Sequence record: DRR723986_1726
Direction: 5' to 3' (one strand)
Length of the DNA stretch: 44,834 bases
The notes beneath the pieces are model-generated. The model had not been told where the DNA came from, searched no databases, and saw nothing but the letters and a program-made list of their open reading frames with translations. Below, piece by piece: positions 26,402-44,834 of this stretch; within the stretch, counting starts at the first letter, position 1, and each line of letters begins with the position of its first letter. Position numbers and translations under genes: made by a program.

Positions 26402-27391
26402 ATGTCTGAAGCCGTAAAAACAACACTGATGAAAAAACTAATGCCAACGCTTAATGCACATGATGCAGAAGCGAATTGGCATATTACTGGCCCTGTTTTT
26501 CGCGCACGAAAATGCGATATATATAAGGTTACCGGAGCCAACCAACAATTCGCAGTAAAAGTTTACAAAGCCGGTGTAACCTCAAAAGCGACGCCCAAAA
26601 TACAATATGAAGCTTTGCAGCGCTGCAATCACGCAGCCAAACGTACCCCCCTAATTCGTGCGCCCATTGCTTTGGCTTTTATACCCGATCAAAACGCAAT
26701 TTTAATGACATGGCATGATACACCCACTTTGCGCACGGCTCTTTGGCGCAACGTAGCAGCGCCAAAGCAACGCTTGACGATTGTCAGCCAGTCAGCTGCT
26801 TGGCTTCGGGCGTTCCACAGCTTATCTGAAAACATTCAGAAACCGCTTGATGGCAGTAAACTGTCTGTAAAGCTGGAAACCCAAATCAAGAAAAAACCTG
26901 AAGCACAAGCCCTGTTGAAAAATTCTACTCAATTCCAGCACGCCTTGTCTTGCTTTCATAATGCTGTCGCCAAATGTAGTGAAACCACTCCTCACGCGCT
27001 CTTGCACGGAGATTTCACCCCTTCAAACCTGCTGGCTGACGGCGAAAACATTGTCGGAATGGATATGTGGGGCGCGCGGCATGCACCCGTTTATGAAGAT
27101 ATTACCCGCATGCTGGCCTATCTAGGCGTTGTCTCGCCCTATTGCCTGTACAATGCACCCCTTGCCCCCGATGGGCCACTCCTAAAAACATTCATGCGCG
27201 GATACGGCACCAAGCGCACTGACATCGAATCGAGAGCTTTCACCATAACCCTTTTATACCAACAACTGCGTCGTTGGCTTGTCTATGCTGACAAGAAAGC
27301 CAAACAACCTCACTCACTTGCCGCCAGATGGCAGGAGCGCAAAAGCCGACACTTATGCATGCAAACAAATACCTGGCTTGATAAATGTTAA
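26402..27391 (+). CDS. Aminoglycoside phosphotransferase / kinase-like fold protein
   Basis: FAVKVY (ATP Lys) and LLHGDFTPSNLL (Brenner motif); DMW in the DFG position. Confidence 0.75.
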   Translation: MSEAVKTTLMKKLMPTLNAHDAEANWHITGPVFRARKCDIYKVTGANQQFAVKVYKAGVTSKATPKIQYEALQRCNHAAKRTPLIRAPIALAFIPDQNAILMTWHDTPTLRTALWRNVAAPKQRLTIVSQSAAWLRAFHSLSENIQKPLDGSKLSVKLETQIKKKPEAQALLKNSTQFQHALSCFHNAVAKCSETTPHALLHGDFTPSNLLADGENIVGMDMWGARHAPVYEDITRMLAYLGVVSPYCLYNAPLAPDGPLLKTFMRGYGTKRTDIESRAFTITLLYQQLRRWLVYADKKAKQPHSLAARWQERKSRHLCMQTNTWLDKC

Positions 27392-27403
27392 TCACCCTCT
27401 GAT

Positions 27404-27435
27404 AAAAAGGCATCCTTAGGGGAAAGGATGCCTTT
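27404..27435 (-). terminator. Rho-independent terminator hairpin (may also stop the convergent kinase gene)
   Basis: 12-bp stem AAAGGCATCCTT/AAGGATGCCTTT; the minus strand ends in U5. Confidence 0.75.
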
Positions 27436-27658
27436 AAGACGGGGTTTTATCCTTGGGAGGGAAATAACACCTGTCGGGGTCGGGTATTAGGGGAATACCC
27501 TCGGGGTAGATTACTATGGCCGGACCCATGTGGGCACTAGGGGCTAGGGTCAGGGGTGTGATCCGCACTTGGGCCCGGCCAGAATCCGCAATCGTGTCAG
27601 GGCTATAAGATCATAAGCAGGAGCTTAAGGACGACTGCAGACCCAAACTTGGAAACTA

Positions 27659-27799
27659 CTAAGCCGCTATACCCAACCGCGATGAGCGGTCATAGCGCCT
27701 GCGATGCCGACGTGTGCGGGCACTTGAATGGTTCACGTGCGCTTTCGTGGCTGGCAGGCCCCTAGGCGGAGCTACGGCGTCAATTAAACTGGTAAACAT
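27659..27799 (-). CDS. 46-aa Arg-rich small ORF
   Basis: GAGGA SD, then MFTSLIDAVAPPRGLPATKAHVNHSSARTRRHRRRYDRSSRLGIAA, followed by TAG TAG. Confidence 0.4.
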   Translation of the reverse strand: MFTSLIDAVAPPRGLPATKAHVNHSSARTRRHRRRYDRSSRLGIAA

Positions 27800-27934
27800 G
27801 TCTTTTATCCTCGCTTTAGTTCGGGATTTCGGCGGCGACTTTAATGTCGCTTTGTCCGATAAACCCAGTGCTGTCGTTGTCGTGTCGCATTGTAGCTGCG
27901 CCTGTTTTCAGGCTTGTCTTGTTGCTACACTGTT

Positions 27935-27963
27935 AATTTAGGGATGGTGGCCAATAAGTTCAA
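27935..27963 (-). promoter_or_regulatory. Sigma70-like promoter TTGAAC-N17-TAAATT
   Basis: Minus strand TTGAAC ttattggccaccatccc TAAATT, pointing into the structured region. Confidence 0.55.
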
Positions 27964-28061
27964 TAGCACCTACCTCATTTTGCGCACGCTTCACCGCAAA
28001 CAACCGATAATTATGACAATCACACCGGCGAGCGGGCGGGCCTAATCGGCTTAGCCGTGGC

Positions 28062-28541
28062 CTATTCAGGCGCCAAGATAGAAAAATCACGTGTTTTTCC
28101 GGTCTCGCAAAGCGATTTCAAGCCCGCAATGACATATGGCCAACCGACAGAGACCATACGATATGTCGCACTCTCAGGACTGGTGAATTCATCATGCTTT
28201 ACTGTCAGTTTTGTTGCCCCGCTTGCGTCTTCAAGCAGAAACAAAACCCTTGAGTGCGGCTCTGGAGCACAAGTTGGATTAAGCGGAAAATGCCATGAAT
28301 AACACAGGCGCTCTGGTTCTATGCATTCCAGCACTTTACCCTCACACCCCACAAGGTTTCCTTGTTCGGTTGAAACCCAAAACTCTACCGCACTCCCCAC
28401 CTTCCAATTAGAGCGCACTTCCGCACCATGCCAATATTGCTTGGTAAATGAACCGCTTGTCAGTGCCCGCCACACTTTCTCGCGCGGCGCGTCGATTAGC
28501 GACACATATGTATATTCTGGGGTTTTTTCTGCTTTTATCAT
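28062..28541 (-). CDS. SRPBCC (AHA1/START-like) domain protein
   Basis: IDAPREKVWRALT...GKVLECIEPERLCYSW...GWPYVIAGLKSLCETG. Confidence 0.9.
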   Translation of the reverse strand: MIKAEKTPEYTYVSLIDAPREKVWRALTSGSFTKQYWHGAEVRSNWKVGSAVEFWVSTEQGNLVGCEGKVLECIEPERLCYSWHFPLNPTCAPEPHSRVLFLLEDASGATKLTVKHDEFTSPESATYRMVSVGWPYVIAGLKSLCETGKTRDFSILAPE

Positions 28542-28554
28542 ATCACGTCCTTAC

Positions 28555-28872
28555 TTAGTCTGAAGAACTGGCTTCCAGAGCCTGCTTGAGGTTAAGGATG
28601 GCCTCAACCCTTCCCTCTGAGTATTTATCAACCCAACGTCGGGTGATTTCCTGAATTGGCACCGGGTTGAGAAAATGCTTTTTTTCCCGCCCCTGCCATT
28701 GGGTCACGACAAGGCCCGCGGCTTCAAGAATAACCACATGTTTGCTGGCCGACTGTCTCCGCATATCAGAGCCAGCGATCAACTCACTCAATGTCAAACC
28801 AGGCTTATCAAGAAGCTTGTCCAGCATCTCTCTCCGGGTCGCGTCGGCCAGAGCCTTAAAAACCAAGTCCAT
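28555..28872 (-). CDS. ArsR/SmtB family transcriptional regulator
   Basis: VFKALADATRR...SKHVVILEAAGLV...GREKKHFLNPVPI. Confidence 0.92.
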   Translation of the reverse strand: MDLVFKALADATRREMLDKLLDKPGLTLSELIAGSDMRRQSASKHVVILEAAGLVVTQWQGREKKHFLNPVPIQEITRRWVDKYSEGRVEAILNLKQALEASSSD

Positions 28873-28897
28873 CCAGTTTTCTTTTCGTTATTCAATA

Positions 28898-28948
28898 ATG
28901 CAGCTTTTTAGCTGCTTATTTATATGCAGCCTTTTAACTGCCTGTCAA
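28898..28948 (-). promoter_or_regulatory. ArsR-gene promoter with two palindromic operators
   Basis: ATGCAGCTTTTTAGCTGC (28898-28915) and ATGCAGCCTTTTAACTGC (28924-28941); perfect TTGACA at 28943-28948 and TATAAA -10 on the minus strand. Confidence 0.7.
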
Positions 28949-29241
28949 GGCAAAACAAAAGGGGCCAAAGAGCCCCTCCGTATATACGCGCCGCCATTCT
29001 CACAGTTGGATTTTAGAAGCTCGTAAATTTCATCCTTCAGGCGCATTCGGCTTTTACGCATATCCTCTTCAGCAAACTGTGACACATGCTCGTCGCCAAT
29101 CTCAATTCGGTGAATTTCGCGATTAAGAACATGATATTGCTCTGATATCCGCCTGAAATGGGCATCAGTTTCCTTCAATTCGTGAATACGCTCTTCAAAC
29201 TCTGGGAAGTCTTCTCGCAGCTCGTGCGGCACATGACTCAT
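28945..29241 (-). CDS. YdcH / DUF465 family protein
   Basis: MSHVPHELREDFPE...DAHFRRISEQYHVLNREIHRIE...RMRLKDEI. Confidence 0.85.
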   Translation of the reverse strand: MSHVPHELREDFPEFEERIHELKETDAHFRRISEQYHVLNREIHRIEIGDEHVSQFAEEDMRKSRMRLKDEIYELLKSNCENGGAYIRRGSLAPFVLP

Positions 29242-44629: not shown

Positions 44630-44674
44630 GGCAACACTCCGCGCGTGAGAAGCACCGGAAAAACCGGCAATCAC

Positions 44675-44834
44675 GCCCCATCTGTCACGGAACCTGAGAG
44701 ATTTCGCCGACGCAGTTGCGCCCGCTTACCCCGTCGGTGAGGAACAGTGACAACCGTGTCACTATCCCTGCTTTCCAGAGTGTCACTTTAATGCGCGGTC
44801 CTTTTGCCTGAGAGTTTCCGGGGCGGTTGCTCCT
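44675..44834 (-). ncRNA. Tandem glycine riboswitch (first aptamer truncated by the window edge)
   Basis: Minus strand AGGAGCAA...ACTCTCAGGCAAAAGGAC...CTCTGGAAAG...CACCGACGGGGTAA...AATCTCTCAGGT, directly upstream of gcvT. Confidence 0.93.

Follow-up and report, generated by a model that had tools for sequence, protein, structure and literature searches.

Small open reading frames (ORFs) that share one RNA with a structured regulatory part are found in the dual-function coding sRNAs, such as SgrS/SgrT and RNAIII/hld, families unrelated in sequence and lineage to the locus described here. In Rhodobacter sphaeroides, according to the published description (PMC8034643), ccaF1 and CcsR1-4 arise from one ~680-nt precursor with an RpoHI/HII promoter and a terminator. 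There, ccaF1 encodes a small arginine-rich RNA-binding protein, the CcsR sRNAs come from the 3'UTR by RNase E cleavage and carry C-rich loops, and CcaF1 binds the CcsR RNAs directly. That locus is of the CIN1 type among the cuckoo RNAs, in which 2-4 adjacent hairpins each display the motif CCUCCUCCC in the loop (PMC4615179). Caulobacter GsrN is a non-coding sRNA under sigma-EcfG control, encoded near the phyR-ecfG locus, and its C-rich loops pair with G-tracts in mRNA leaders (PMC5869019).

We examined a window of 44,834 nucleotides (the whole stretch of DNA that was analyzed, from sequence record DRR723986_1726) in which a 670-bp gap between ORFs (27392-28061) contains an element of comparable layout. 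The features of the gap and of its two flanks are as follows.

26402-27391, plus strand: APH-family kinase gene, convergent with the element.
27404-27435, minus strand: intrinsic terminator with a 12-bp stem (27435-27406), loop UCCCCU, then UUUUU.
27443-27471, minus strand: hairpin H4, GGUGUUAU/AUAAAACC, displaying CCCUCCCAAGG (27461-27451), from single-sequence folds.
27482-27500, minus strand: hairpin H3, GGGUAU/AUACCC with loop UCCCCUA, from single-sequence minimum free energy (MFE) folds.
27518-27580, minus strand: 3'UTR element H2, stem GGCCGGGCCCA (27580-27570) with UGGGUCCGGCC (27528-27518).
27583-27643, minus strand: 3'UTR hairpin H1, outer stem 27643-27631 with 27595-27583.
27659-27799, minus strand: small ORF of 46 aa, MFTSLIDAVAPPRGLPATKAHVNHSSARTRRHRRRYDRSSRLGIAA, uninterrupted in all 26 sequences and with substitutions of the coding kind.
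27800-27930, minus strand: 5' leader of ~130 nt, with a 5'-terminal stem-loop, an ACGACAG motif and a Shine-Dalgarno (SD) sequence.
27935-27964, minus strand: promoter, ATTGAA(C) at 27964-27958 and CCTAAATT at 27942-27935.
27964-28000, minus strand: upstream block TTTGCGGTGAAGCGTGC...AAATG...GGTGCT, adjoining the -35 hexamer, ungapped in 26 of 26 sequences.
28062-28541, minus strand: AHSA1/SRPBCC gene, the other flank of the gap.

Set against the published account of ccaF1-CcsR (PMC8034643), the locus has in common a single transcript of 500-700 nt (predicted here), a promoter resembling those of RpoH, an arginine-rich small-protein gene in first position, 3'UTR hairpins with C-rich loops, and an intrinsic terminator. 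It differs in that its peptide is not a DUF1127 protein, the CCUCCUCCC motif is missing, its lineage is Kordiimonas-type, and its hairpins are no repeated module, the core being instead one large element whose loop, CCCCUGACCCUAGCCCC, is invariant. With the cuckoo family as a whole (Rfam ar14 / RSs0680; Reinkensmeier and Giegerich, 2015) it shares an alphaproteobacterial origin and adjacent hairpins with C-rich, partly anti-SD-like loops, but it has neither CCUCCUCCC nor a covariance-model match at E up to 10. Compared with GsrN by the latter's published description (PMC5869019), the locus has an ORF, another promoter type and synteny with rmuC. The RNA and the peptide are both uncatalogued, and their architecture has a clear precedent.

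To place the element among relatives, two flanking genes served as baits. The kinase gene yielded 85 pattern matches, none of which was confirmed, and RmuC, whose gene lies farther along the minus strand beyond the ArsR/HTH_20 and DUF465 genes, yielded 80 loci, the best 33 of which were from Kordiimonas-type alphaproteobacteria (59-74% identity). When the gap sequence was used in an nhmmer search, 25 of these loci showed a colinear match of ~600 nt (E < 1e-10), with 3 further loci marginal; all the matches were on the same strand as rmuC and lay downstream of it, at a distance of 116-1675 bp. Cultured carriers of the locus include Kordiimonas gwangyangensis DSM 19435 (L015) and K. lacus (L016). 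The conserved span (~28002-27404 in window coordinates) therefore extends upstream beyond the promoter named in an earlier sequence-only reading of this DNA, which had proposed a minus-strand unit of ~525 nt with its own promoter and terminator. That unit was borne out, and these alignments establish the gap as one conserved, predicted minus-strand transcription unit running from ~27930 to 27404. In the window's clade, DUF465, ArsR/HTH_20 and AHSA1/SRPBCC genes stand between rmuC and the element (28062-29241, minus strand), and in five other loci (L007, L011, L018, L019 and L028) the element begins 116-196 bp past rmuC. Elsewhere in the window, a glycine riboswitch aptamer (RF00504) was matched at 44672-44788 on the minus strand (42.5 bits; gathering score 32).

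The promoter region, which reaches from the predicted start back to 85 nt upstream of it, aligned without gaps in 26 sequences, giving the consensus tTTGCGgtGAAgcGTgC...AAAtG.GgtggG.gCtATTGAA-N16-cCTA.ATTA-N4-TGTAGC, in which ATTGAA and cCTA.ATTA are conserved at fixed spacing. The window's own copy can be read as TTGAAC-N17-TAAATT or as ATTGAA-N16-CCTAAAT, and its hexamers score 8/12 by our own count. TTGAAC (27963-27958), the 17-nt spacer and TAAATT (27940-27935) do lie on the minus strand where the sequence-only reading had put them, and so does the terminator, although a simple consensus scan (sigma-70, terminator) flagged neither. The promoter core is also near the alphaproteobacterial sigma-70 consensus. 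In its second form, ATTGAA-N16-CCTAAAT, it resembles the Sinorhizobium meliloti RpoH1 consensus CTTGAA-N15-16-CCTATAT, as that is quoted in PMC4843759. The putative RpoH-type assignment is thus one of resemblance only, and an alphaproteobacterial sigma-70 promoter would fit about as well. Directly 5' of the -35 hexamer is the 37-bp upstream block, which is probably an activator or UP-type site. Each of the 5 genomes searched had a single exact copy of its pattern, and a regulon search of these 5 genomes returned only the locus itself at 0 mismatches and, at 1 mismatch, matches at about the level of the control.

At the 5' end of the predicted transcript, the invariant UGUAGC (27929-27924) pairs with 27896-27891 around an inner hairpin, the same TGTAGC/GCTACA stem enclosing CCTG/CAGG that had been described from the window. 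When the first 60 nt of each sequence were folded, at least 5 of the 6 UGUAGC bases were paired in the MFE structure of 22 of 26 sequences, and RNAalifold on a MAFFT alignment of the whole leader returned 0 consensus pairs. A thermometer in which the leader sequesters the SD was considered by eye and dropped because the SD pairing is not conserved.

Within this leader, an invariant SD sequence, GCGAGGA (27814-27808; 26-sequence alignment A2), is followed 4-9 nt on by an invariant ATGTTTAC start, and the ORF that it opens is uninterrupted in 26/26 sequences (41-52 aa). Within five clades, differences at codon positions 1, 2 and 3 numbered 564, 454 and 978, so that the third position varied ~2x as much as the first and second; in the closest clade these counts were 26, 20 and 78, with 66 synonymous versus 38 non-synonymous codon changes. 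The two other sense frames have stops in most sequences, and no antisense frame was stop-free in more than 7 of the 26. By its substitution pattern, the 46-aa ORF is demonstrably under purifying selection, which contradicts the proposal that the gap encodes a purely non-coding RNA; the ORF at 27799-27659 had been overlooked. The case shows that what is taken for a candidate 'long sRNA' may conceal a conserved small ORF.

The encoded peptide has eight invariant residues (M1, F2, T3, R28, R31, R34, R35 and R38), comprising an N-terminal MFT and arginines of an arginine-rich C-terminal helix. AlphaFold2, given the 26-sequence alignment, predicted coil followed by a single helix at residues 27-45, which bears the invariant arginines (mean pLDDT 68.8; 88 over residues 31-40). 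Searches of Pfam and NCBIfam with 4 of the 26 peptides returned no match at E up to 10, and none of these 4 matched DUF1127 (PF06568; threshold 23.3 bits) at that limit. PF06568 was likewise found in 0 of 5 related Kordiimonas genomes by a search that does match an E. coli control. The ESM Atlas gave no usable match to the peptide. A profile search of 1.84 billion representative proteins (E up to 1e-3) returned 18 matches, of which 17 were MFT peptides (16 with lengths of 37-52 aa, the other annotated with an N-terminal extension of 66 aa), carrying no source name other than 'hypothetical protein' or 'Uncharacterized protein'; the 18th, a long protein, was regarded as spurious. At the C-terminus (27659-27670, minus strand), 19 of the 26 peptides end in -AA, often LAA or IAA, an ending that resembles a C-terminal ssrA-type ClpX degron and would presumably make the peptide short-lived.

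We then turned to RNA structure. The minus strand (536 nt) folded better than its shuffles (z -4.48; 0/100 shuffles as good), and the plus strand gave z -2.46. RNAalifold on 26 sequences from the stop codon to the terminator (alignment A1) yielded 36 consensus pairs across a 257-nt 3' region, namely those of H1, H2 and the terminator. In this alignment 92.7% of cells were paired, versus 30-48% when the partners were slid by 1-3 columns, and 24 of 36 pairs showed compensatory change versus 8-13 in the slid controls; 0/500 shuffles attained any of five covariation measures. Judged by this covariation, the 3' part of 257 nt is genuinely a structured RNA. On the minus strand G-U cells outnumbered A-C cells 133 to 13, and on the plus strand only 79.8% of cells could pair; the structured RNA is therefore that of the minus strand.

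All 12 pairs of H1 were changed on both sides somewhere among the 26 sequences (92.9% of cells paired), and in the window's clade H1 contains an inner hairpin, UAAGC-UCCU-GCUUA (27627-27614). H2, closed by the GGCCGG (27580) and CCGGCC (27518) that had been described as a multibranch stem, has 12 pairs (93.1% of cells paired), of which 6 show compensatory change, and encloses the invariant loop CCCCUGACCCUAGCCCCUAG (27556-27537), in which the columns of CCCCUGACCCUAGCCCC(U/A)AG are invariant or at least 90% conserved. A mimic of the 16S 3' end, GGAUCAC, was considered in H2 and dropped because it is not conserved in other clades. The terminator, which lies 15 nt past the stop codon of the convergent kinase gene, has 7 consensus pairs (91.1% of cells paired), and compensatory change is seen in 5 of them.

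Between H2 and the terminator, an RNAalifold consensus fold on a MAFFT alignment of the clade-1 3' tail was uninformative, which leaves single-sequence folds as the basis for H3 and H4. In 10 of 10 window-clade sequences the H3 position is taken by a hairpin whose loop is C-rich (mostly CCCCUA) and whose stem sequence differs, and GGTGT and CCTCCCAAGG of H4 are invariant in the same 10. H4 holds the sole CCUCC (anti-SD-like) motif of the transcript, in a loop kept only in the window's own clade (10/26 sequences); the universally invariant motif CCCCUGACCCUAGCCCC has no CCUCC. Other clades have an unpaired CCUACCCAAG at the H4 position, ahead of the terminator, and their tail past H2 consists of an unpaired UUUCUUUCCUAAACCUACCCAAGCAC, then the terminator. 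CCCCU(A/G) recurs in H2 (twice), in the H3 loop and in the terminator loop. The plus strand has GGGG runs at 27419, 27441, 27476, 27490, 27503, 27540 and 27553, plus one GGGAGGG, and seven GGGG runs were attained by 1 of 5000 mononucleotide shuffles of 27404-27580.

The sequence-only reading of this gap, that of a ~525-nt structured RNA with an array of C-rich loops, was thus partly right. The sequence features that it listed are there, including the seven GGGG runs and the GGGAGGG, the terminator hairpin at 27435-27406 with its UUUUU, and the C-rich loops and linkers, and its structure in the 3' half is real, with covariation in 24 of 36 pairs. Its statement that nearly all of the unit folds was an overstatement: the central hairpins fall inside the conserved ORF (27659-27799), where RNAalifold found no consensus structure in 26 sequences and where close relatives retain the window's own pairs in 61% of cells and distant relatives in 37%. 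Covariation supports the 3' region, and neither the leader nor the ORF region has consensus pairs. As an interpretation it stands for the minus-strand unit, the 3' structure, the C-rich loops and the lack of an Rfam match, and fails on the purely non-coding nature of the RNA.

A covariance-model search at Rfam gathering thresholds returned no match in the gap, as that reading had expected, and only the glycine riboswitch in the rest of the window. With the limit relaxed to an E of 10, just two weak matches appeared in the gap, both on the plus strand and to unrelated families, flg-Rhizobiales and a vertebrate lncRNA fragment. The flg-Rhizobiales candidate (RF01736; 24.3 bits at 27409-27519, plus strand; gathering score 55) was rejected, its strand being contradicted because the G-U versus A-C counts favor the minus strand. 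We observe that the resemblance comes from plus-strand GGGA/GGGG loops, the mirror image of the minus-strand C-rich loops. A permuted tmRNA was rejected because ARAGORN finds 0 tRNA or tmRNA genes in the window. Membership in the cuckoo or AbcR families was also rejected, there being no covariance-model match and no cuckoo motif: CCTCCTCCC with up to 1 mismatch had no match within 27404-27963, and the nearest thing to it is a single CCCUCCC at 27461-27455. The comparison with cuckoo-type RNAs, which the sequence-only reading had drawn, is apt as an analogy. The invariant loop sequence occurred in no paper of the literature searched (main texts), and among reports on Kordiimonas and sRNAs nothing related was found, judged by title and abstract.

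The invariant 20-mer of the loop occurs at 24 places among species-representative genomes, 22 of them in Kordiimonas-type records (one each) and 2 of them strays. We built a covariance model, R1, from H1 and H2, which matched 1 of 151 genomes sampled across the class (G001, the query's own relative). Among 101 genomes sampled within its order the model matched 18, each with a single copy, and 16 of these were judged real. Two of these loci (L119 and L120) are divergent and still have the MFT ORF upstream of the RNA core; another two (L121 and L122), weak model matches at E 0.003-0.005, were treated as false because they had neither ORF nor core motif. A further divergent pair of ORF and RNA was found at L012. 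In the genomes sampled, the element is single-copy per genome and was found only in the Kordiimonas-type lineage.

One relative departs from this arrangement. In Yunchengibacter salinarum (L025, 7650-8080, plus strand), the H1+H2 model matched at 46.8 bits, and a promoter, CTTGAA-N17-CCATATT, lies ~45 nt before H1, with no MFT ORF and no SD at this locus. Its upstream block is shortened, with the TGCGGTGAA block 10 bp nearer the -35 hexamer. This single genome suggests that the RNA core can stand alone, and because it keeps promoter and core without the ORF, the core appears to be the primary functional unit.

The explanation that we favor, and to which we give about an even chance, is that of a stress-type small-protein mRNA whose 3'UTR would act as a C-rich riboregulator in the manner of ccaF1-CcsR; it draws on the analogies offered by ccaF1-CcsR (PMC8034643) and GsrN (PMC5869019). 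A stress-type (RpoH-like) promoter would drive an mRNA whose translation yields an arginine-rich peptide that binds RNA. The 3'UTR, either whole or cut by an endonuclease at the AU-rich linker after H2, would serve as the riboregulator, its exposed C-rich loops pairing with G-rich or SD-like sites of target mRNAs, and the peptide may bind and modulate the 3'UTR RNA. In searches for such targets, complements of CCCUCCCAAGG and of the invariant loop occurred at chance level within the window. The complement of the invariant 17-mer, allowing up to 2 mismatches, had no extended antisense partner in 5 related genomes; this search returned the locus itself and one same-sense coding match in G005. 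The latter, a one-mismatch copy of the loop at the start of a 455-aa ORF (MTPDPSPE...; L140, 1497-1530, plus strand), was judged to be chance.

How much of the locus acts as RNA, and on which strand, bears on two readings to which we give little credence. That the gap encodes a purely non-coding, 525-nt multivalent anti-SD regulator with a fortuitous ORF, as first proposed, is very improbable: the structure and C-rich loops are real and one relative (L025) has no ORF, but SD, start and ORF are conserved in 26/26 sequences with threefold codon periodicity, the divergent loci L119, L120 and L012 also keep the MFT ORF upstream of the RNA core, and the ORF region has no conserved structure. A functional RNA on the plus strand, with GGGA/GGGG loops of the CsrA type or like those of flg-Rhizobiales, is more remote still and scarcely credible. 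The weak flg-Rhizobiales match and the plus-strand fold (z -2.46) speak for it, yet 24.3 bits is far below the gathering score of 55, the G-U excess and the 79.8% pairing on the plus strand count against it, and promoter, SD, ORF and U-tail all belong to the minus strand.

Three further readings keep the coding capacity of the transcript and assign its 3' part otherwise. If the locus were a plain small-protein mRNA, the peptide would be the sole effector and the 3'UTR hairpins would work only in cis, in mRNA stability, in termination, or in autoregulation by a peptide that binds its own 3'UTR. The strong coding signature, the position of the structure between stop codon and terminator, and the failure to find a trans target in the window or in 5 related genomes agree with this, but conservation is higher in the invariant 17-20-nt loop than in the coding sequence, and the persistence of core and promoter without the ORF in L025 would be unexpected of a purely cis-acting element; we consider this reading unlikely. 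It is equally doubtful, in our estimation, that the 3' part is a platform or sponge whose repeated, exposed CCCCU(A/G) and CCC motifs, instead of base-pairing, recruit an RNA-binding protein or titrate it away, the candidate binders being the arginine-rich peptide that the locus encodes or a factor with a preference for C, such as Rho. An invariant loop sequence within covarying stems is typical of protein or tertiary contacts, CCCCU(A/G) recurs as described above, no complementary partner was found in 5 genomes, and there is the precedent of CcaF1, which binds CcsR RNAs directly (PMC8034643). Against it, outside H2 the number and sequence of the C-rich loops differ among clades. We also entertain, with a similarly low expectation, a lineage-specific ribonucleoprotein module in which a peptide with an arginine-rich helix and its cognate, ultraconserved C-rich RNA would be made from one stress-induced transcript, the RNA being the older, autonomous effector that survived the loss of the ORF in one genus. 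The RNA of such a module would either sequester a C-binding factor, as a decoy, or regulate mRNAs with G-tracts, with the peptide tuning the RNA; if true, the module would be a counterpart of CcaF1-CcsR that evolved independently and from unrelated components.

The locus adds two uncatalogued items, a small-protein family and a structured RNA that covaries strongly and has an invariant loop of 17 nt. Because the lineage is environmental, marine and little studied, the finding's immediate impact is modest. Should the favored reading of a small-protein mRNA with a riboregulatory 3'UTR hold, the pairing, within a single stress transcript, of a tiny arginine-rich protein with a structured, C-rich 3'UTR RNA would have arisen more than once in the Alphaproteobacteria, from unrelated sequences, and such a repeated origin would suggest a general design and not a quirk of DUF1127/cuckoo loci.
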